IMG/VR virus record: IMGVR_UViG_2802429351_000001
Coordinates: 14,591 to 78,590 of that record
Source of the DNA: a virus
Lineage: Duplodnaviria > Caudoviricetes
Length of the DNA stretch: 64,000 nt
Strand: one strand, 5' to 3'
Shown here: in pieces, positions 7,714-48,999 of the stretch
Numbering within the stretch: position 1 is the first letter of the stretch
Layout of the letters: each line of letters opens with the position of its first letter
Made by a program: the position numbers and the translations under genes
Notes under the pieces: model-generated
Seen by the model: the letters and a program-made list of their open reading frames with translations, nothing else
Database searches by the model: none
Told to the model about the DNA's origin: nothing

Positions 7714-8370
7714 ATGGATTTTGAAAAAATAGGGAAGTTAGATCTAACCTTAGCCCAAATGGTAAAAGGTTATAAAGAAAATATCTTATGGTGTATTAAT
7801 GAATACCAGGAGTTATACAAAGAAATATTCTCATCTAGGGATGGTATAAAAAACAGTGAGAATTTTTTTACTGATCTAACCATAAAAAATATATACAAAC
7901 ATTATGGTTTATCTACCATATACCTAGCCAACATAATAGAGAGTACTGCATTAAGTATAGATAGCGACCTAATTCAGTATGTCTATAATTATGGTAATGC
8001 AAATAATCTCACACTACCTTCCAAAAACCAGGGTGTATTTATAGTGTTGGGGGATTATATGAATCAGATAAAGTTACTTAAACAAGAAGTTTTCCCTAAT
8101 TCCGGGTATAGTATAAATAGCCGAAAATATAAACCCATAAATATTACACAGGATAGAGTAGATTTTTGTAAGATCAAAGTAGTTGATAACCTTATATTCT
8201 TAGAAATGTTTTTTAAAGATTTAAAAAGAACCGAAAACAAGGATATCCATTACGATTATTTAATAGAAAGTTTATTACTATTAATATACATTGCAGATAT
8301 CATTAATATAGACAAAGAAATAGCACTAGATGAAACCCACGATAACCAACAATTACTGTTTGAATTTTAA
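7714..8370 (+). CDS. All-alpha protein, possibly a degenerate dimeric dUTPase/MazG-fold NTP pyrophosphatase
   Basis: Helical character (WCINEYQELYKE; LIESLLLLIYIAD) and position directly before two TS-fold genes. Fold assignment is weak. Confidence 0.3.
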   Translation: MDFEKIGKLDLTLAQMVKGYKENILWCINEYQELYKEIFSSRDGIKNSENFFTDLTIKNIYKHYGLSTIYLANIIESTALSIDSDLIQYVYNYGNANNLTLPSKNQGVFIVLGDYMNQIKLLKQEVFPNSGYSINSRKYKPINITQDRVDFCKIKVVDNLIFLEMFFKDLKRTENKDIHYDYLIESLLLLIYIADIINIDKEIALDETHDNQQLLFEF

Positions 8371-9130
8371 AACAAGCCAAGAAGCTTGGGAAGGATTAAA
8401 TGCTTTCTTTTTAAACAAATCCGAATTTATATTCAATAAAGGTTTAGGTGCTTTCGTTAGTGGCCAAGTTGTAATGTATGATGTAGATGTAAAAATTGAA
8501 GAACCAAAAGTATCCCCCGATTTTGATTTTGGTAATACTTTTGGATACCGTAAACAAAAATGGTCGGGGCTGGTAAATAATTACCTAGACCAAGAATCAC
8601 TTGGGAATTTTATAGGTAGGGTATTAGAAGCTGAGAATATTAAAAAACAAAAGAATTATAATATCTCTATGGCTTTCTCAAATAATCACGACCATGGTAA
8701 AAATTGTTTATTAAGTCTTACAGCTATACGTAGAAATATGTATGAACTACCTATCTTAAATTTTACACTAAGATCATCTGAGATTACCAAAAGACTATTA
8801 ATGGACCTATTACTTATACAAAGAATAGGGGAAGAGATATATCCAAACTTTACCATTAATATGAAGGTAATTAATATGTACCAGGACCCAGAAGCATTCT
8901 GTATGTTCGACAGTTTCAAACCTATAAAATCAATCTTAGAAATAGAATGTAAGAAAACACATTACCAAAAGAAAATAACCCGGATATTAAGAAAATTTAA
9001 AACAGTTGATATAAAAGAAATAAAATACAAGGTCCACAAAAGATGTGTAAGGCAATTACAAAGACCAAATGGAATACCCTTATCAGGTGATAGACCAATG
9101 TATGCAAAAGAATTAAAACTACCTAAATAA
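8330..9130 (+). CDS. Divergent thymidylate-synthase-fold protein A
   Basis: KNCLLSL (catalytic Cys position), RSSE in place of RSxD, Asp 11 residues after the Arg, no clear HxY motif. Confidence 0.6.
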   Translation: MKPTITNNYCLNFKTSQEAWEGLNAFFLNKSEFIFNKGLGAFVSGQVVMYDVDVKIEEPKVSPDFDFGNTFGYRKQKWSGLVNNYLDQESLGNFIGRVLEAENIKKQKNYNISMAFSNNHDHGKNCLLSLTAIRRNMYELPILNFTLRSSEITKRLLMDLLLIQRIGEEIYPNFTINMKVINMYQDPEAFCMFDSFKPIKSILEIECKKTHYQKKITRILRKFKTVDIKEIKYKVHKRCVRQLQRPNGIPLSGDRPMYAKELKLPK

Positions 9131-9942
9131 TGAAAACAAGGACAGTACAAATACAATTGTATAATACTATAGATTTTTTAGTAAAGTATGGGAATGAGGT
9201 AAAATCAGGTACATGGCAAGCCAATAAAGATTTCTCTAATGAGATCATGTTGGTTCAAAGAAATTTACAAATGGTTGTACCTTGTGGTGATGGATTAGAC
9301 CTTAATAAAATATGGGCTGATCAACCATGGGCAGAGGACCATTTTAATGAAAGGGTTGGGGGTATACCTACTAACCCTGGGGAGACATATAAATATTGGC
9401 CATACGCTAATTTCAAAGAGGGTGATGATCCCTACCAAGATGGCAAGGTATTTAGTCATACCTATCAAGAAAGGTTTTGGCCAAGGATTAGTAAAATTTT
9501 CCAATATCAATTAGAACCCCCAAAATTTGGTAGTGAATTGGTAAAACCAAAAGGTATAAGATATAAATATGGCGATTTACAAGATGTAATAAACCAACTA
9601 AAGGAAAACCCATTAACCAGGCAAGCTTATTTACCCATCTTTTTTCCAGAGGATACTGGGGCTGTTCATAAACAAAGGGTACCATGTACTTTAGGTTATT
9701 ATTTTTGGATAGAAAATAATAAACTATACATGAATTACATTATTAGAAGCTGCGATGCTCTTAGACACTTTAGAAATGACGTATATCTAACAATTAGACT
9801 ATTACAATATGTAGCAGAGAAATTAAATATTGGTTTAGGTGATACTACTTTTTATATCTTTAATTTCCATGTTTTCAAGAATGATTTATATGCTTTAAAT
9901 AAAAGAGAAAAAAAGATATGTCAAGAACTAACAATAGGATAA
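9130..9942 (+). CDS. Thymidylate-synthase-fold protein B, likely dCMP (hydroxy)methylase type
   Basis: TRQAYLPIF, RVPCTLGYYF, RSCDALRHFRNDVY, NFHVF. FRND matches T4 gp42 rather than ThyA LPFN. Confidence 0.8.
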   Translation: MKTRTVQIQLYNTIDFLVKYGNEVKSGTWQANKDFSNEIMLVQRNLQMVVPCGDGLDLNKIWADQPWAEDHFNERVGGIPTNPGETYKYWPYANFKEGDDPYQDGKVFSHTYQERFWPRISKIFQYQLEPPKFGSELVKPKGIRYKYGDLQDVINQLKENPLTRQAYLPIFFPEDTGAVHKQRVPCTLGYYFWIENNKLYMNYIIRSCDALRHFRNDVYLTIRLLQYVAEKLNIGLGDTTFYIFNFHVFKNDLYALNKREKKICQELTIG

Positions 9943-10346
9943 GTAGGGAAAATATGTTTATAGAGATCCTACAAACAATATCTAAAAGATCTACATGCCC
10001 CAGAAAACAAGTTGGGGCTATTTTAGTTAAAGAGAACAGGGTTATAGCTATGGGTTATAATGGGGTATTACCCGGGGTAAAGCCCGAAGAGGGTATAGAC
10101 CATATAACTGGTGTTAGTAAAACCGTACATGCCGAGGCCAATATAATTTCATTTTGTGCTAAACATGGAATAGCAACCGCAGATTCAGAATTATACATAA
10201 CCTTATCACCTTGCGTAAAATGTGCTGAGTTAATAGTTCAAGCCGGTATAAATAAGGTAAATTATATAGAACAGTATAGGGATACTTCTGGCCTAGAATT
10301 ATTAACTAAACAAAATATACAAATATGCCAAGTAAGTTTAAAATAA
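9918..10346 (+). CDS. dCMP deaminase
   Basis: RSTCPRKQVGA, MGYNG, HAEAN, LSPCVKCAELIVQAGI. Confidence 0.92.
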   Translation: MSRTNNRISRENMFIEILQTISKRSTCPRKQVGAILVKENRVIAMGYNGVLPGVKPEEGIDHITGVSKTVHAEANIISFCAKHGIATADSELYITLSPCVKCAELIVQAGINKVNYIEQYRDTSGLELLTKQNIQICQVSLK

Positions 10347-12568
10347 TAAGAACTAAATCTACATTAAAAAGGGTTATTAGATATTGTAAACAAACTGGTT
10401 ATGCTTGTGTCGATTTTGAAACCAATGCTTTACCTATAAACCATCCTTTATTTTACCCAACCGTACTCGGTATCACTTTTCAACCTGGTTCTTCATATGT
10501 ATTACCGCTAGCACACTTTGATTCACCTTTTAAAAAATCTTGGCCAAAACTATTTAAATTATTTTGTAAGGAGGTAATAGAAAATCCTGAAATTATAAAG
10601 GTAGCCCAAAATGCTAAATTTGAATATAAAATATTCTTAAAATATGGTTATGAGATAAAAGGTAGGATATTTGATACCATGTTAGCTAAATATCTTTTAG
10701 ATGAAGAAAAACCAATGGGTTTAAAACCTATGGTAAACAATTTTATACCAGAATACGCAGGATATGAGGAAGATTATGATGGTGCTAAATTACCTTGGGA
10801 TCAAAAACCCTTAAAAGGTTTATCAGAATATTGTGGGTTAGATACTGACCTTACTTTAAGATTAATGTTTTTCTATGAGGATAAACTTATAAAAAATAAT
10901 CTATATTCTTTATTCCGTAATATGTTGATGATGGGTGTTAGGGTATTAGGTGATTCTGAATACGGAGGTATGGATGTAGATATACCTTACCTAGATAACC
11001 TTATTATAGAATATGAGAATTACCTAGAGGAAAATGATAAAAAAATTAGGAATACTAAAACCCTTAATAAATTCCAAAAATGGTTAGATCAAAGCAGGAT
11101 TAATAAATTAATGGACAAGGTTGTTCAGGAAATAGAAGAGGTAGAAGAAGAGGTAGAAGAAATCAAGGCCGAAATAAAAAGGCTAAAGAAAAAGGTTAAG
11201 AAGAAAAAACATAAAGGGGCTTTAGAATTAATACATAAAAATGAGGTTGTATTAAGACGTAAAGAAAAATCTATAAGAACCAGAGAAGATAAAATAGATA
11301 GGTATAGGGCTAGGGAGATGTCTACTAAAACAGAGGTTAAATGTTTAGAACCTATAAACTTTAATTCCTCAAACCAAATGGTGGATTTATTCTTTACATC
11401 ACCCCAAGGTTTTCAATTTGATATTATAAAATACACAGTTGATAAGAAAACTAAAAAAGAAAGTGATAGACCTTCTACAGATGAAGAGGTACTAGAACAA
11501 TTAAAACCTTTAGATAAATCTGGTTTTGTAGAAGGTTTATTAAGACATAGGGAATTAAGTAAACTATATTCTACTTATATAAAAGGTATTCGTGATAAAT
11601 GCATTGATGGTAAAGTACATGCTAGGTTCTTATTAGAGGGGACGGTTACAGGTAGATTAAGTAGTCAAAACCCCAATTTACAAAATATACCTAGGGATAC
11701 AACTGCTAAGGATATAAAGAAAATGTTTGTACCTCCAAAGGGTTATTATCTATTACAATTGGATTATTCACAGGCCGAATTAAGGGTAATGGCTGCACAG
11801 GCCGGGGAAGAAACCATGATCCGGTGGTTTAAAGAAGGAAAAGATATTCACCTTACCACCGCCTTAAAAATGTATAGGCAAGAAGAAAGGTATGATGAAA
11901 TATTTGAGGTATTAGAAAAAGAAGATAAAAAGGACCCAAGGTATACTGAGTGGAAGGTTAGAAGGAAATATGCTAAAACTATTAACTTTGGTATAATATA
12001 TGGACAGGGGGTTCCTAAATTGGCTAACTCATTAGGCTGGACTATAGAGGAGGCTCAAACATTCTTAAATGAATATTTTGATACTTTCCCAAAAATTAGA
12101 GAATTTATCAAGCAACAACATAAAATTGCACACCGGGATGCTTTTGTAAGAAATGTATTTGGTAGAAAACGTAGATTACCTAAAATTGATTCATATGAGA
12201 AATGGGAAGTTGCCGAAGCTGAAAGACAATCGGTGAACGCACCAATCCAAGGGGCTGCTTCAGACTACACCCTATTCTCTTCAATTATAATTTGGGAAGA
12301 AGTAAGGAAAAAAAATATACCTATATATAAACCACAGGTATATACAGTACATGATTCCTTGGGTTATTATGTTAGGGCCGAAGATATACATGATGTAGTT
12401 CCTAAATTAGAAAAGATTTGTGCAAACCCTGAAACTATGGAATGGTTCAATTTTCAAATTGACGATGTTACTATGAAAGTAGATTTTGAGCTAAGTAGTA
12501 TCAGTTGGCAAGCTTTAAAAACTTATGATCCAAAGATTGACTATACTAAACAAATTGGACTATTATAA
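10325..12568 (+). CDS. polA: DNA polymerase family A with 3'-5' exonuclease
   Basis: Exo motifs DFET, QNAKFE, YCGLD; TGRLSSQNPNLQNIP, DYSQAELRV, RKYAKTINFGIIYG (Phe at the 762-equivalent), VNAPIQG, VHDS. Confidence 0.95.
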   Translation: MPSKFKIIRTKSTLKRVIRYCKQTGYACVDFETNALPINHPLFYPTVLGITFQPGSSYVLPLAHFDSPFKKSWPKLFKLFCKEVIENPEIIKVAQNAKFEYKIFLKYGYEIKGRIFDTMLAKYLLDEEKPMGLKPMVNNFIPEYAGYEEDYDGAKLPWDQKPLKGLSEYCGLDTDLTLRLMFFYEDKLIKNNLYSLFRNMLMMGVRVLGDSEYGGMDVDIPYLDNLIIEYENYLEENDKKIRNTKTLNKFQKWLDQSRINKLMDKVVQEIEEVEEEVEEIKAEIKRLKKKVKKKKHKGALELIHKNEVVLRRKEKSIRTREDKIDRYRAREMSTKTEVKCLEPINFNSSNQMVDLFFTSPQGFQFDIIKYTVDKKTKKESDRPSTDEEVLEQLKPLDKSGFVEGLLRHRELSKLYSTYIKGIRDKCIDGKVHARFLLEGTVTGRLSSQNPNLQNIPRDTTAKDIKKMFVPPKGYYLLQLDYSQAELRVMAAQAGEETMIRWFKEGKDIHLTTALKMYRQEERYDEIFEVLEKEDKKDPRYTEWKVRRKYAKTINFGIIYGQGVPKLANSLGWTIEEAQTFLNEYFDTFPKIREFIKQQHKIAHRDAFVRNVFGRKRRLPKIDSYEKWEVAEAERQSVNAPIQGAASDYTLFSSIIIWEEVRKKNIPIYKPQVYTVHDSLGYYVRAEDIHDVVPKLEKICANPETMEWFNFQIDDVTMKVDFELSSISWQALKTYDPKIDYTKQIGLL

Positions 12569-12582
12569 ATCAAATTAAGACA

Positions 12583-13053
12583 ATGAGGAAAAAACTTGAT
12601 AAGTATATTAAAAAATCCGATTTAATGAATATATCATTAAAAGTGGGAGGGGAAAAATTTGCATTTAATCTATATGATGAATTAAGGATAGATGTAAATA
12701 GGATGACCGAAGAAATAAAAGAACAACCAAGTTATTATTCATTCCTTTGTTTATTATTAGTTAAACTAGAAACCTTAGAAGATGATAGGGAGATGGAATT
12801 TGAAAAGGTTAAAGCTGAATTAACCATAAAATACAAAGAGGAGACTGACCCCTTAACACATAAACCCTATAATAATGATGTGGCTAAGGCTAAGGTTATT
12901 GCCAACCCTAAATATAAAGCATACTTTAAAAAATATTCAAAAGCTAAAACCAATAAAGGTATAGTAAAATCTGCGGTAAAAGCTTTTGAACATAGGCAAG
13001 GTTTACTACAAACACTTTCCGCTAATGTTAGAAATGAAAGAAATAACATTTAA
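12583..13053 (+). CDS. uvsY: UvsY-like recombination mediator
   Basis: Coiled-coil protein with AKVIANPKY...KAFEHRQGLLQTLSANVRNE pattern; lies near SSB and RecA genes. Confidence 0.6.
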   Translation: MRKKLDKYIKKSDLMNISLKVGGEKFAFNLYDELRIDVNRMTEEIKEQPSYYSFLCLLLVKLETLEDDREMEFEKVKAELTIKYKEETDPLTHKPYNNDVAKAKVIANPKYKAYFKKYSKAKTNKGIVKSAVKAFEHRQGLLQTLSANVRNERNNI

Positions 13054-13064
13054 AATTCAATATT

Positions 13065-13439
13065 ATGAGAAAAATGGAAATAATGCTTAAAGATGATTTT
13101 GAGGTAGTTGAAGATGGTGCTACTTATATAGTACCTATTTATAAGGCTACCTCAGAAGGTTTAAAAGAGGTTATGGATACCGGTAAAAAGGATGACCCTT
13201 TTCAAAACCAAATTATTAATTTTGTTAGGGCAGAAAATAACCTTAACTCTGCTAACGTAGGTACATTACATGAACACCTTTTAAAGGTTATGATTTATGA
13301 TCTTAAAATAAAGAATCAACATGTAAGGTCAAGGGAAACATATATAGCTATTACCAAAATGGAAGAAGCTTATAATGTTTTGCTTCAAAGGCAAATAGAT
13401 AGGACTGATAGAGAAGTAATAGGAACAACAGAAGAATAA
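13065..13439 (+). CDS. tad1: Tad1-like anti-defence signal sponge
   Basis: C-terminal EHLLKVMIYDL...RETYIAITKMEEAYNVLLQRQIDRTDREVIGT matches the Tad1 pattern as recalled (EDLL...REN.LAITK.EEAL.WL..R...RE.R.V.GT). Confidence 0.7.
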   Translation: MRKMEIMLKDDFEVVEDGATYIVPIYKATSEGLKEVMDTGKKDDPFQNQIINFVRAENNLNSANVGTLHEHLLKVMIYDLKIKNQHVRSRETYIAITKMEEAYNVLLQRQIDRTDREVIGTTEE

Positions 13440-14267: not shown

Positions 14268-15401
14268 ATGGCAAAGAAGAAAAAGAAATTAAAGGTATCA
14301 TCTAGATCGGCCCTACGTAAAAAATACGTGGGGTCTGATACCGCTTCTAATATTGTAGTAGCGGCGGAAGATATGCTATGGTTACCAAGTAGGTTTATTG
14401 CCTTAAATGATTTATTGGGTGGGGGGATACCATTCGGTAAAATACTTGAAATATTCGGTGAAGAATCGTCAGGTAAATCCTTATTAGCTTATGATTTTGC
14501 ATATTGTTGCCAAAGGTTAGGGGGTGTAGTAATGTGGAATGATGCTGAACATGCTTTCACTGAATCTTGGGCTTTACAGAATGGTTTGGATTTAGATATG
14601 GTAGAATTGTATACCAATAAATCTATTGAAAACCTAGCTGACTGGGCTATGGATATGGCTATATCAATTAGGCAGGAACTAGTAAATAATGAACCTATAC
14701 TTTTGGTTGTAGATTCTATTGCTGCCATGGATTGTCTTGAGAATTTAGAATCACACCATATTGATGCAAAAGCTGAAATGGGAAATAGAGCTAAGGCTTT
14801 CGATAAATTATTTAGAACCCGAAATAATATTTGGGAAAAATTAGGGGTAGCAGTATTAGCTATCAACCAATTAAGGTCTAAGATAGGGGCATCCCAATTC
14901 CAAGATCCTGATACAACCCCCGGGGGGAAAGCTACAAAGTTCTATGCTTCTCAAAGATTAGGCGTTTATGGTGGTAAACAAATTAAAGGTAAAGTAAGGG
15001 GTCAAGAAGATAGGGTTGGTAGAGAGACTTCTATTAGGGTTAAGAAAAATAAAGTAGCCCCACCTAAACCTACTATCAAAGGAGCTCAGGTTTATTTCAA
15101 CCCAGATTATAAGGAACCCATTGGTTTTAGTAAATATTATGGTTTACCTGATATATTATTAAGGCATGAGGTTTTAACCAAAGCTAAGGGGGCTTCTAAA
15201 TATATGATGGGTGATAAAATGGTAGCTAGAGGAGAACCGAGTTTATTGAAAAAACTTCAAACTGATGATAAGTTTAGAAGTAAAATGATTCGTAAATCTG
15301 GTGTTAATACTATTAGTAGAACAAGGAATAAGATGAAAAAATTAGGGCGTGATATGTTCGATGTTTCAAATTTAACTAAAGAAGATTTACAAAAAGATTA
15401 G
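14268..15401 (+). CDS. recA: RecA/UvsX recombinase
   Basis: LLGGGIPFGKILEIFGEESSGKS, VVDSIAA, INQLRSKIG, TPGGKATKFYASQRL, KNKVAPP. Confidence 0.95.
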   Translation: MAKKKKKLKVSSRSALRKKYVGSDTASNIVVAAEDMLWLPSRFIALNDLLGGGIPFGKILEIFGEESSGKSLLAYDFAYCCQRLGGVVMWNDAEHAFTESWALQNGLDLDMVELYTNKSIENLADWAMDMAISIRQELVNNEPILLVVDSIAAMDCLENLESHHIDAKAEMGNRAKAFDKLFRTRNNIWEKLGVAVLAINQLRSKIGASQFQDPDTTPGGKATKFYASQRLGVYGGKQIKGKVRGQEDRVGRETSIRVKKNKVAPPKPTIKGAQVYFNPDYKEPIGFSKYYGLPDILLRHEVLTKAKGASKYMMGDKMVARGEPSLLKKLQTDDKFRSKMIRKSGVNTISRTRNKMKKLGRDMFDVSNLTKEDLQKD

Positions 15402-17374: not shown

Positions 17375-18007
17375 ATGAAGAGTAAACAAATATTTATAGC
17401 CGGGCCCTCTGGGTCCGGTAAAACAACTTTGGCCAATTATATTTCTATCCGATATAGAATACCTTTCATAGAAGGTTCTTCAAAACCAATTTGGCCAGAG
17501 TTTAATATAACTTCACACCTAGATATAATAAATAGAAGTGCTAAAGATAAAGATTTTGCGGTAGAGTTTCAAGAAAGGTTATTATATTACAGAACAGAAA
17601 AACTTGAAGGTGTAAAAGAATTTGTAACAGATAGGAGTTTTATAGACAATCTGGTTTATTTTACATTACAGGCTGGACCCCACCTAAACACGGAATCCCA
17701 TAATATTTACATTGAAATGTGTAGGGAATCTATAGAAAAATATGACCCCACTATTTTATTCTTGGATATCAATGATTTAAATATAAATCTGGAAAATGAT
17801 AATATGAGAGTAAATAACCGTTGGTTTCAAGAGGCTACAGGTTCTTTATTTAGAGATTATATTAATAGGAATATAATTTGTAGTAAAGAGTTGATAGTAC
17901 CTATAAATGAATGGGATTGGGAAACTCGTATAAATACTATAGATAAACTTTTTGACCAAACAAAAGAGAACAAATGGAAAAGCATAATAAAAAAGTTAAA
18001 TATATAG
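17375..18007 (+). CDS. P-loop nucleotide (dNMP) kinase-like protein
   Basis: IFIAGPSGSGKTT and FVTDRSFIDNLVY (thymidylate-kinase/AAA_28-like DRS motif). Confidence 0.7.
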   Translation: MKSKQIFIAGPSGSGKTTLANYISIRYRIPFIEGSSKPIWPEFNITSHLDIINRSAKDKDFAVEFQERLLYYRTEKLEGVKEFVTDRSFIDNLVYFTLQAGPHLNTESHNIYIEMCRESIEKYDPTILFLDINDLNINLENDNMRVNNRWFQEATGSLFRDYINRNIICSKELIVPINEWDWETRINTIDKLFDQTKENKWKSIIKKLNI

Positions 18008-47516: not shown

Positions 47517-47966
47517 TATTGTAAATCAGTTGCATCCAATAGATGCCGAGCCAGTAGAATTAAAAGATATAGATATATCATACCCAATATTAAGTAGGTA
47601 TAAACTTAAAGAAGCTATTGCTGAGATTAATAGGAAGGATTGGGATATTAATTCAGAAAATCAGGCTATAAAATATAGAAAAATGATGGGGGCTATATTT
47701 AACACTTTTAAAAGAAAACCACGGGTTTTTGATAATAGGGATTTTTATTTACCAGAAATTAAATTCAAACACAAGGTAAAATGGTAAAGAAGGAAAATAT
47801 CATGACATTAACTTTTAAAGGGTCACAAATAAAAACCTTTAATAGCTTAATTAATAAACTATCTAATAAAACAGTTGGCTTTAATAAAATAACAACACTA
47901 ACTGATACTGAAGAATCATTATTAGATAAAATTAATAAAGAACTTAATAAAAAGAAAGATGACTAA
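47506..47966 (+). other. Two small hypothetical CDSs (47506..47787, 47781..47966)
   Basis: Tiled ORFs. Confidence 0.55.
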
Positions 47967-48999
47967 AACTAGAAGGCGTAAATTAAAAATATTAGGCGTA
48001 TGTGGGGGTAATGGGGTAATTCTCCACCCCCTACGTAGGTACGTCATAGGAAATATAGAAGATAGGGGGGTATTTAAAACCCCCAAGAATTTACAATGGT
48101 ACACTAATTTCAAGGTACCATTTGTTGATGATGTAATGGTTGCTGGTTTTTTATTTAAAAAGGTAGACATAGTAATAGGGGCACCCAATTGTGGTAGTTC
48201 TTCTATACTGGGTTTTACTGGTAATAAGAAAAGAAAAAACCCTACTGATGATCCATCCATGAAGATGTATTTTGAAACAGTTTTGAAATATAATCCTAAG
48301 ATATGGATAATGGAAAACCTACCAGCTTTGTTAAACCATATAACCATGCAGGACTTTAAGGAAAAATTTCCAGATTATCTTTTCGTTTTTCATACAATGA
48401 GTATGGCTGAATTAGGTAATTCCCAGAAAACCCGTAAAAGGTTAGTGATTGTAGCTTTACATAAATCACTACCAGCAGAAGTATATATGGCCTTTTCACA
48501 GGTAGAACCCCAGGCTGAGCCTAAAAGGATTAAGGATTTAATTGGCGATTTGGAAAAGGATAATCCTAAGTTAGCAAATGTAAGAGAACCTGGTAAGTAT
48601 AAAATTAAAATGGGTAAGAAAGCTTATTCTATGAACGATATAAAGGTTACATGGGATGAAAATCTTAAAGGTAAGAAATATTGGCCCATGGATTTTGAAA
48701 AGAAGGATTCACCTTATATACCAGGAGTTTATAGGTTGTTACCGGAAAATTTCCCACAAACAGTTAGGCAAGATGCTAGGCAATTTAGACCAGATGGAAA
48801 ACCTATGTCCCCAAGGGAATTAGCCAGGATTCAAGGTATACCAGATAAATTTAAATTATATGTACCAGAAGAAGTTACCCATGGTAAAAAACCTAGTTAT
48901 TATATAAATAGAGCTAGGATAACAGTAGCTAAGGGAGCTCCGTATGAATTAGGTTTATGGGTTAAAGAAAAGATAAAGGTTGCTAGAAAATTTCTTTAA
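47959..48999 (+). CDS. Divergent DNA (cytosine-5) methyltransferase
   Basis: Motif I-like VCGGNG, IV-like GAPNC, VI MENL, VIII SQKTRKRLVIV, IX/X MSPRELARIQGIPDKF...KGAP. Confidence 0.75.
   Translation: MTKTRRRKLKILGVCGGNGVILHPLRRYVIGNIEDRGVFKTPKNLQWYTNFKVPFVDDVMVAGFLFKKVDIVIGAPNCGSSSILGFTGNKKRKNPTDDPSMKMYFETVLKYNPKIWIMENLPALLNHITMQDFKEKFPDYLFVFHTMSMAELGNSQKTRKRLVIVALHKSLPAEVYMAFSQVEPQAEPKRIKDLIGDLEKDNPKLANVREPGKYKIKMGKKAYSMNDIKVTWDENLKGKKYWPMDFEKKDSPYIPGVYRLLPENFPQTVRQDARQFRPDGKPMSPRELARIQGIPDKFKLYVPEEVTHGKKPSYYINRARITVAKGAPYELGLWVKEKIKVARKFL

Follow-up and report, generated by a model that had tools for sequence, protein, structure and literature searches.

Members of a thymidylate synthase (TS)-fold family, undescribed so far, are the new element of a phage gene module encoded directly upstream of a family A DNA polymerase (PolA). 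The representative of this family, gene A, is translationally coupled to gene B, a TS homologue whose residues point, with high probability, to dCMP-specific transfer of a one-carbon unit to C5. Nearly all known pre-replicative pyrimidine modifications of phage DNA (5mC, 5hmC, 5hmU, and 5hoC) start with TS-fold enzymes, and each new TS-fold branch has so far yielded a new base or enzyme chemistry, together with tools for epigenetic sequencing. Both genes are located in a window of 64,000 nucleotides (the whole stretch of DNA analyzed, positions 14,591 to 78,590 of IMGVR_UViG_2802429351_000001), which belongs to a complete genome of 78.6 kb with DTR. We slightly favor a scheme in which this conserved module would rework deoxycytidine nucleotides before replication, with B performing a one-carbon transfer and A acting as a second catalytic enzyme. 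The original prediction described the locus as a candidate new pathway; the neighborhood of an Asp177 TS and a deaminase, and the corresponding route, have already been published, and the part comprising B and the deaminase is a published kind of pathway. Only the partner, A, is new.

Organization and Conservation of the Module

The module comprises orf218 (7714–8370), gene A (8330–9130), gene B (9130–9942), and a zinc deaminase of the dCMP-deaminase family (9918–10346), followed by the PolA gene (10325–12568), which matches annotated DNA polymerase I and whose product is the consumer of the dNTP pool; all are encoded on the + strand. A tandem TS-fold pair and a deaminase had been predicted just before the polymerase, and the coordinates of the four ORFs, their order, and their strand are all as claimed. 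The ATG at 8330 as the start of A is backed by an N-terminus conserved among homologues, and the A/B junction is TAATG, in which the TAA stop codon of A shares one base with the ATG of B.

In 76 of 78 metagenomic loci, B follows A at a distance of no more than 1 kb, and the two genes overlap or abut in 44. The order NTP pyrophosphatase, A, B, (deaminase), and PolA is also found in the cultured phages Gordonia GTE2, Streptomyces KimJongPhill, Brevundimonas Strzyga, and Curtobacterium Shrew, and the module order recurs on an unrelated phage contig with a RepB primase; in every related locus, PolA comes after B or the deaminase. A and B are translationally coupled, and their synteny extends to very distant phages. 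A without B is found in two loci (L007 and L066), of which L007 carries A and a deaminase, and the ORFs in the place of B at these loci have no family match. Furthermore, A is located beside a dUTPase_2 gene with no nearby TS, e.g., in L087, and two copies of A are present in L080, L082, and L084. The occurrence of A without B, or with dUTPase_2 only, suggests an activity of A's own.

Farther downstream, a P-loop kinase gene (17375–18007, + strand) encodes a candidate (modified) dNMP kinase. Profile searches gave an AAA_28 match and weak dNK matches, and the protein matched the PHROG thymidylate kinase and dNMP kinase families with E values of 1e-10 to 1e-4. A kinase gene adjoins the module in cultured relatives.

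Gene B, a Cytosine-Type Thymidylate Synthase Homologue

Gene B encodes a folate-type TS homologue that is a member of PF00303 (41.9 bits, E 8.6e-11; gathering threshold 24.3 bits) and matches phrog_160 (E 2.5e-31). The best PDB match of the B-family profile is the N229D mutant of L. casei TS. In the profile alignment, D217 of B falls on L. casei Asn229 (equivalent to E. coli Asn177), the catalytic Cys is matched by C186, and the R-S-x-D motif by R206-S-C-D209. In E. coli numbering, B retains Cys146, Arg166, Ser167, Asp169, and His207, which agrees with the earlier view of B as catalytically complete, although the protein is non-canonical at Leu143 (Arg), His147 (Thr), Arg127 (Gln), and Tyr209 (Phe), besides the Asn177 to Asp replacement. 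The five retained residues, N177D, and L143R (Arg183 of B) are present in 85 of 85 B-type proteins, which were taken from sampled loci and nearly all adjoin an A gene; the Arg127 position of B-type proteins is Gln or Lys. As a control, the same residue mapping recovered the published signature of RB69 gp48 (L143E/D169N/N177D). With homologues beyond its own clade, B can be aligned in the C-terminal core alone, at approximately 30% identity, and transfer of a product from characterized enzymes is therefore unjustified. PF00303 has no match in the complete genome besides B, and neither ThyX nor DHFR was found there, in agreement with the reported lack of a canonical ThyA or ThyX.

The published specificity rules for TS homologues concern N177D, L143, and D169N (PMC13326640; PMC8670742). 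The Asp at the E. coli Asn177 position, which marks dCMP-specific enzymes, is present in B (D217) and, by alignment, in A (D159), as had been proposed for both proteins. Based on these residues, dCMP is highly likely to be the substrate of B, for which transfer of a methyl or hydroxymethyl group to C5 is predicted. Enzymes of the T4 gp42/MilA type combine Asp177 with Asp or Glu at Leu143, where B carries Arg183, invariant in 85 of 85. This Arg is at odds with both the hydrophobic residue of the methylase class and the Asp/Glu of the hydroxymethylase class, and the rules therefore do not predict the product; we incline, by a small degree, toward 5-methyl-dCMP. The signature of 5-hydroxy-dCMP (5hodCMP) synthases, including AfhB and RB69 gp48, is D169N (PMC13326640), and the corresponding residue is Asp209 in B and Glu151 in A, whereas the RB69 gp48 control shows Asn in the same alignment. 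B was also considered as a 5-hydroxy-dCMP synthase, and this assignment was rejected on account of the retained Asp169; 5-hydroxy-C is thus an unlikely product.

Gene A, an Undescribed Branch of the Thymidylate Synthase Fold

A has no match in Pfam and, by phmmer, none in the PDB, and 36 distant A relatives gave nothing relevant in Pfam. Since B is above the PF00303 threshold and A and these relatives have no match, A is outside the Pfam model. A is confidently predicted to have the TS superfamily fold, an alpha/beta fold that places the catalytic Cys in the central strand and an Arg-Ser phosphate loop approximately 20 residues later. The AF2 model (pLDDT 94) matched only TS-superfamily chains in Foldseek. 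Comparison with the dCMP hydroxylase AfhB of phage HY126 (9iqu) gave a VIA Z of 14.1 over 180 residues (rmsd 3.9 Å), and comparisons with MilA and TS gave VIA Z values of 10–13. Among solved structures, 9iqu is the nearest to family A and provides its sole PDB sequence match; a profile of distant members matched it at E 1e-5, with R148, E151, and D159 of A on R, N, and D of AfhB. Comparison of 79 A-family with 45 B-family sequences by hhalign (E 4e-5, probability 70%) paired C126 with C186, R148 with R206, E151 with D209, and D159 with D217, and this significance was reached only after distant members had been added, low-diversity alignments having given a probability of 0.9%. In two to three alignments, Cys126, Arg148, Glu151, and Asp159 fell on Cys146, Arg166, Asp169, and Asn177, with S149 on Ser167. 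The original reading that A keeps the Cys, has RSSE, and lacks HxY is borne out by Cys126 and Arg148-Ser-Ser-Glu151; neither HxY nor Arg126′/Arg127′ has a recognizable counterpart in A.

K77, Y85, C126, R148, and D159 are invariant in the 36 distant relatives, down to approximately 20% identity. The invariance of C126, R148, and D159 is more in keeping with an active site than with a scaffold, and A is probably catalytic for this reason. Glu151 occupies the position at which folate-dependent enzymes carry Asp169; the residue is Glu in the Brevundimonas phage Strzyga and Tyr in the actinophage homologues (GTE2, KimJongPhill, and Shrew), and the three Tyr replacements imply that the position is not essential family-wide. 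The C-terminus of the family is a conserved helical extension of 70 residues. Homology searches totaled 340 A relatives and 2737 B-type TS relatives (proteins), and a search of the phage collection with A gave only three matches, all from uncultured gut phages. A literature search found no published description of family A. As a tentative idea, which we hold with much less confidence than catalysis itself, family A may be a new catalytic TS-fold branch with a reaction on a cytosine nucleotide so far unseen in the superfamily; the candidates are installation of a new C5 substituent with a non-folate cofactor and Cys-driven hydrolytic deamination of 5-methyl-dCMP. If so, hundreds of phages, including the cultured Gordonia, Streptomyces, Curtobacterium, and Brevundimonas phages, would carry an undescribed base or an undescribed two-enzyme thymidylate route.

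Orf218 and the Zinc Deaminase

Orf218, at a position taken in relatives by a dUTPase_2-type NTP pyrophosphatase (dCTPase/dUTPase-like), encodes a highly divergent all-alpha protein. Of 75 testable related loci, 65 encode a protein of 260–300 amino acids directly upstream of A, and PF08761 was matched by each of the three representatives that were scanned. Orf218 itself has no Pfam or PHROG match, was not matched by an HMM of the upstream dUTPase_2-like family, and found only itself in a word-based homologue search. A positional group of four sequences including orf218 aligns to the PF08761-type upstream family (hhalign 95%, E 2e-8). The AF2 model (pLDDT 72) has no Foldseek match, and in an exhaustive VIA search the top two of 48,161 chains were dimeric dUTPases (5myd, Z 9.1; 1w2y, Z 8.2), values in the ambiguous range for helical proteins. 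There is thus weak evidence for a dimeric-dUTPase-like fold, and catalytic competence is doubtful: ExxE is present at E30 and E33, as read from the translation, and the second of the two acidic metal motifs, which reads NEExxD in the positional homologues, is missing. The suggestion of a helical NTP-pyrophosphatase-like protein has weak backing from the fold search and is weakened by the lack of a family match and of the second motif. A true dUTPase_2-family NTP pyrophosphatase is encoded elsewhere in the genome (49716–50174, − strand; PF08761, above the curated cut-off); this gene and a C5 DNA methyltransferase gene (47959–48999) had been overlooked in the original prediction.

The deaminase beside B, previously proposed as a dCMP deaminase, is upheld at the family level by PF00383 (78.7 bits, E 3e-22) and phrog_174 (E 1.7e-43). 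The zinc motifs VHAEAN and SPCVKC are present, and the best PDB relatives are the dCMP deaminases of S. mutans (E 1e-28), cyanophage S-TIM5, T4, and PBCV-1. A PF00383 gene is present in 18 of 80 related loci and absent from four complete related genomes carrying A and B.

Cytosine in Virion DNA

The C5 cytosine DNA methyltransferase (47959–48999, + strand; PF00145, E 5.7e-20) has probable PNC and ENL motifs, as read from the translation, and homologues in four of five complete related genomes. Furthermore, strong avoidance is seen for GATC (134 observed vs. 226 expected) and GAATTC (3 observed vs. 25 expected). The conserved methyltransferase would be left without a substrate in DNA with complete C5 substitution of cytosine, and the avoidance of the two sites resembles that of DNA still open to restriction; total replacement of C is uncertain for these reasons. 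Whether virion DNA carries C5-modified cytosine genome-wide is, in our judgment, evenly balanced. The proposal of a modified dCMP made before replication therefore stands in part: the residue mapping of B favors C5 transfer to dCMP, whereas 5-hydroxy-C is unlikely owing to Asp169, and replacement of all C is weakened by the methyltransferase and the site avoidance.

Proposed Scheme and Alternative Explanations

In the scheme that we favor, the module, in the order NTP-pyrophosphatase-fold ORF, A, B, dCMP-family deaminase, and PolA, would act on deoxycytidine nucleotides as follows. B would transfer a one-carbon unit onto C5 of dCMP, most likely giving 5-methyl-dCMP; 5-hydroxymethyl-dCMP is a possible product because Arg at Leu143 is a case outside the published rules. 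The deaminase would draw thymidine nucleotides from the dCMP or 5-methyl-dC pool, and the P-loop kinase and host NDP kinase would convert the products into triphosphates for PolA. A would be a second autonomous enzyme, with Cys attack at C6 of a cytosine nucleotide, and would probably depart from classical methylene-tetrahydrofolate transfer in its cofactor or chemistry, given that the flavin-dependent dCMP 5-hydroxylase AfhB is its nearest relative.

The most serious alternative, which we consider clearly less probable than this scheme, is a thymidylate bypass only: B and a deaminase of the phage or host would take dCMP via 5-methyl-dCMP to dTMP for the 69% A+T genome, with A assisting, and virion C would be ordinary, with some sites protected by the phage C5 methyltransferase. 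The complete genome without a dUMP-type TS or ThyX, the conservation of the methyltransferase, the avoidance of GATC and GAATTC, and the published role of in-cis deaminases in converting 5-methyl-dC to dT are all in line with such a bypass. However, the PF00383 gene is missing from four complete related A-B genomes and from most related loci, dCTPase-like and dNMP-kinase-like genes are typical of replacement pathways, and the published metaviromes place this gene combination overwhelmingly on contigs scored as C-modified.

Other explanations concern the role of A. In TS enzymes, which are obligate dimers, the active sites are shared, and A could, as originally suggested, be a non-catalytic or half-site partner that completes or regulates the active site of B in a TS-like heterodimer, an arrangement with which the A-B translational coupling here and in cultured phages, the missing Arg126′/127′ counterparts in A, and Gln or Lys at Arg127 in B are consistent. 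We regard this as improbable: A's own Cys, Arg, and Asp are invariant among distant relatives, B-type relatives far outnumber those of A, overlapping genes are common throughout the genome, and the loci with A and no B (L087 having dUTPase_2 only) or with A doubled disfavor an obligate heterodimer. A bolder and very unlikely possibility is that A is a Cys-dependent hydrolytic deaminase, in which Cys126 would add to C6 of (5-methyl-)dCMP, the 5,6-dihydro intermediate would shed its 4-amino group, and dTMP or dUMP would be freed, so that A and B form a two-enzyme converter of dCMP to dTMP without a zinc deaminase. The lability of 5,6-dihydrocytosine adducts, as in bisulfite treatment and in C5-methyltransferases without SAM, would provide a chemical basis for this idea. 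It would explain why Cys, Arg, and Asp are kept while the Asp169 position varies (E or Y), the tight A-B coupling, the dispensability of the zinc deaminase in most relatives, complete genomes included, and the coexistence with a C5 DNA methyltransferase. However, the idea is purely inferential, A and the zinc deaminase of the window would duplicate each other's role, L007 has A and a deaminase without B, and no TS-fold enzyme is known to deaminate via a Cys adduct.

Relationship to Known Systems

In a metavirome study, a neighborhood of an Asp177 TS, an in-cis dCMP-family deaminase, a PRA-PH/NTP pyrophosphatase, and PolA is described, C-modified contigs are strongly enriched in the combination of an Asp177 TS and an in-cis deaminase, and five of seven tested synthases made 5-methyl-dCMP (bioRxiv 10.1101/2024.12.05.627091). 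The route from dCMP via a 5m-dC nucleotide to dT by deamination was already proposed there, and the original prediction, in which it was called unusual, thus coincides with a published proposal. The MetaGPA neighborhoods (PMC8670742; 10.1101/2024.12.05.627091) resemble the present module in the Asp of B at Asn177, the PF00383 deaminase overlapping the end of B, PolA next, and an NTP-pyrophosphatase-fold gene upstream; by contrast, a C5 DNA methyltransferase is encoded in the present genome, and family A is unmentioned in the parts of these studies considered, because only Pfam domains were used and A has no Pfam model.

The 5mC module of Xp12 and Pamexvirus likewise clusters a pyrophosphatase, a TS homologue, and a deaminase in the replication region, and all C in Xp12 is 5mC. 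Of the features of an Xp12-type module (an Asp177 TS with a hydrophobic residue 143, a deaminase, an NTP pyrophosphatase, and DHFR), Asp177 and the deaminase are present here, whereas residue 143 is Arg, DHFR is absent, the pyrophosphatase-fold ORF is degenerate, and the true dUTPase_2 is located elsewhere. The AXL1 module (gp61–64) comprises an NTP pyrophosphohydrolase, a TS homologue, a dCMP deaminase, and DHFR, and the consecutive numbering of the TS (gp63) and pyrophosphohydrolase (gp64) implies that, unlike here, no A-like gene lies between them (PMC9206674). Among the matches listed (approximately 100 of 730 B-search records), none is from Xanthomonas, Stenotrophomonas, or Pseudomonas phages. 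The flavin-dependent 5-hydroxy-dCMP synthases of the AfhB/RB69 gp48 type (9iqu, 9iqc; PMC13326640) have the Cys, Arg-Ser, and cytosine-type Asp in common with A and differ in the diagnostic D169N (Glu in A, Tyr in actinophages, Asp in B), in an identity of approximately 11%, in the C-terminal extension of A, and in that no arabinosyl- or glycosyl-transferase cluster was seen beside the present module. The T4 pathway (gp56/gp42/cd/td/gp1) has the same logic: dCMP is supplied by a dCTPase/dUTPase and modified by a TS-fold enzyme, the dT branch relies on a dCMP deaminase together with another enzyme of the TS fold, and a dNMP kinase acts next; here, however, both TS-fold proteins have the cytosine-type Asp, B lacks the gp42-type Asp/Glu at Leu143, and no glucosyltransferase was identified.

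Family A is thus conserved, apparently catalytic from its invariant residues, missed by Pfam-based screens, and coupled to an Asp177 synthase clade in which Leu143 is Arg. If the phage DNA is canonical, the A-B pair would represent a phage thymidylate route bypassing dUMP. The pair occurs in cultured, easily grown actinophages, which makes the question experimentally accessible; in the cultured Gordonia, Streptomyces, Curtobacterium, and Brevundimonas phages, members of family A have gone unrecognized under the annotation "hypothetical protein."

Gene B and the Switch at Position 177

Gene B (9130–9942, + strand) matches PF00303 and the PHROG 'thymidylate synthase' families and is the sole PF00303 match of the complete genome, in which neither ThyX nor DHFR was found, in agreement with the original observation that the window shows no canonical ThyA or ThyX. 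The best solved relative of the B profile (41 homologues) is the N229D mutant of L. casei thymidylate synthase (TS), and residue correspondences were taken from that alignment. Cys146, Arg166-Ser167-x-Asp169, Asn177, and His207 of E. coli ThyA correspond to C186, R206-S-C-D209, D217, and H247 of B, respectively; Tyr209 is replaced by F249, Arg126/Arg127 by R164/Q165, Leu143 by R183, and His147 by T187. The procedure was controlled on RB69 gp48, where it recovered the published L143E/D169N/N177D signature (PMC13326640). Position 177 is an established dUMP/dCMP switch (PMC8670742; PMC13326640), and N177D together with L143R and a retained Asp169 is found in all 85 B-type proteins collected across the sampled loci, almost all of them neighbours of an A gene. 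Because N177D is accompanied by Asp169 throughout, B is, as judged from these residues, a cytosine-type, folate-type enzyme. On the same grounds it is not a 5-hydroxy-dCMP synthase, whose published signature includes D169N, and 5-hydroxy-C, one of the modifications originally considered, is unlikely for B. The published rule assigns a hydrophobic residue at 143 to methylases and an acidic one to hydroxymethylases; B, with Arg, fits neither class. Separately, the 'dCMP hydroxymethylase' of Acinetobacter phage Melin (locus L096:244–948) is probably misannotated, as it shows the L143E/D169N/N177D combination typical of 5-hydroxy-dCMP synthases.

Family A, a Further Branch of the TS Fold

Gene A (8330–9130, + strand) has no match in Pfam, PHROG function, or PDB sequences, although 340 homologues (210 clusters at 50% identity) were obtained by word search. 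An AlphaFold2 model from a 39-sequence alignment reached a pLDDT of 94 and a pTM of 0.91, and every significant Foldseek match of the model was a TS-superfamily chain, with the dCMP hydroxylase AfhB of phage HY126, MilA, and T4 dCMP hydroxymethylase at the top. VIA-align gave Z 14.1 against AfhB (180 residues, rmsd 3.9 Å) and about 10.5 against classical TS, and the ESM Atlas neighbours agree. On these four lines of structural prediction, A belongs to the TS fold. Furthermore, a profile made exclusively of distant A members matched AfhB (E 1e-5), placing R148-x-x-E151...D159 on R-S-Q-N...D of AfhB, and an hhalign comparison of the two families (79 A and 45 B sequences; E 4e-5, probability 70%) paired C126/C186, R148/R206, E151/D209, and D159/D217. 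Two consecutive TS-fold genes with a cytosine-type Asp on the Asn177 column (D159 in A, D217 in B) are thereby confirmed, and A was correctly described as keeping the Cys, with RSSE, an Asp 11 residues after the Arg, and no HxY. Among 36 A relatives at about 20% identity, K77, Y85, C126, R148, and D159 are the sole invariant residues and E151 is nearly invariant, which reads as an active-site pattern. Family A is mentioned in no paper found by the literature search, and Pfam-based screens would miss it.

Operon Setting and Flanking Genes

The complete 78,590-bp virus record (G+C 31%), of which the window covers positions 14591–78590, carries direct terminal repeats, and the A–B pair sits within a long + strand replication operon in the order DnaB-like helicase, Toprim protein, SF2 helicase, small Cys-rich ORF, orf218, A, B, deaminase, PolA (10325–12568), gp32-like SSB, RecA/UvsX-like protein, 5′-3′ exonuclease, P-loop kinase, Mre11/Rad50-like proteins, and PDDEXK nuclease. 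The deaminase (9918–10346, + strand) is a typical member of PF00383, has the HAE and PCxxC motifs, and is closest to dCMP deaminases of bacteria, cyanophage, T4, and PBCV-1, as had been predicted. The P-loop kinase (17375–18007, + strand) weakly resembles thymidylate kinases and dNMP kinases and is a candidate for phosphorylating a modified dNMP; in cultured relatives a kinase adjoins the TS module.

The helical, NTP-pyrophosphatase-like character assigned to orf218 (7714–8370, + strand) was borne out in part. It has no family match and no homologue by word search; of 75 related loci that could be tested, 65 have a protein of 260–300 aa directly upstream of A, and the three representatives scanned match dUTPase_2 (PF08761). 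A four-sequence positional group including orf218 aligns to this upstream family (hhalign 95%) with the NEExxD motif missing, and in an exhaustive structural search dimeric dUTPases ranked 1 and 2 of 48,161 chains (Z 9.1 and 8.2, a range ambiguous for helical proteins). From these three weak lines we read orf218 as a putative degenerate member of the dimeric-dUTPase fold. A true dUTPase_2-family NTP pyrophosphatase (PF08761; 49716–50174, − strand) lies far from the TS module.

Distribution of the A–B Pair

The A profile recovered 80 loci from IMG/VR, with the genes arranged as helicase, small ORF, (dUTPase_2-like), A, B, (deaminase), PolA, SSB, and RecA-like. Three loci have the A gene duplicated, in tandem or split: in human-gut phages two paralogues precede B (L080:4896–6729; L082:5998–7762), and in another locus they flank TS and deaminase (L084:1272–4410). 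Distant A members stand next to a dUTPase_2 gene, and no TS lies within 8 kb of them; a further one belongs to a dUTPase_2–A–TS–deaminase–UDG/PolA series in an otherwise unrelated phage. In L085, a single 851-aa product (10572–13127) with recorded PF03167 (uracil-DNA-glycosylase) and PF00476 (family A polymerase) domains directly follows a dUTPase_2–A–TS–deaminase module. Four cultured phages encode a family A member, annotated 'hypothetical protein', immediately ahead of the B-type synthase (A3 profile, E 1e-10 to 1e-26, 31–84 bits, only 15 proteins scored): orf39 of Gordonia phage GTE2, gp77 of Streptomyces phage KimJongPhill, 00470 of Brevundimonas phage Strzyga, and gp74 of Curtobacterium phage Shrew. 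All four have a pyrophosphatase upstream of A and a DNA polymerase downstream, and all except Strzyga a deaminase.

Proposed Pathway and Its Alternatives

The original interpretation is supported in part: the pathway proposed as new, including its 'unusual' deamination alternative, is of a known kind, because the combination of Asp177 TS, in-cis deaminase, PRA-PH, and PolA has already been described from metaviromes. There (10.1101/2024.12.05.627091), the combination is strongly enriched on contigs scored cytosine-modified, five of seven tested synthases made 5-methyl-dCMP, and the deaminases are proposed to convert 5-methyl-dC nucleotides to dT nucleotides. The Xp12/Pamexvirus module has pyrophosphohydrolase (gp64) and TS (gp63) as consecutive genes and includes DHFR (PMC9206674), which the present genome lacks. 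The interest lies in family A and the L143R clade of Asp177 synthases.

In the proposed mechanism, pyrophosphatase(s) would supply dCTP/dCMP, B would attach a one-carbon unit to dCMP at C5, a deaminase, in loci that have one, would channel part of the pool to dT, and kinases would deliver triphosphates to PolA; A is predicted to be a second Cys-dependent enzyme acting on a cytosine nucleotide. A rival reading pairs A with B in a heterodimer. Of the 78 loci with sufficient sequence, 76 have B no more than 1 kb downstream of A, and the genes overlap or abut in 44 loci (the junction here is TAATG); in two loci A is kept and an unrelated orphan ORF fills the B position (L007:3331–3903, which also keeps the deaminase; L066:2559–3068). 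Alternatively, A may be a cysteine-driven deaminase, or the module may serve solely as a thymidylate bypass. Only 18 of the 80 loci include a deaminase gene, and PF00383 is absent from four complete relatives without an adjacent one; in these, therefore, the product of B would not be merely a dT precursor.

Possible Modification of Virion Cytosine

Genome-wide C5 substitution of cytosine is given about an even chance. The published metavirome association, the dCTPase-like and kinase-like genes, and the deaminase-free complete relatives speak in its favour. A C5 cytosine DNA methyltransferase (47959–48999, + strand; PF00145, E 5.7e-20), with plausible catalytic motifs by our own reading of the translation and homologues in four of five complete relatives that have an A–B pair, is hard to reconcile with full substitution, because it would have no substrate if C5 were already occupied. 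Also counted against modification is the strong avoidance, in the whole genome, of GATC (134 observed vs. 226 expected, z −6.1) and GAATTC (3 vs. 25, z −4.4), which suggests that the phage still meets restriction. A slight excess of GGCC and CCGG in the whole genome makes these sites possible targets of the phage C5 methyltransferase.
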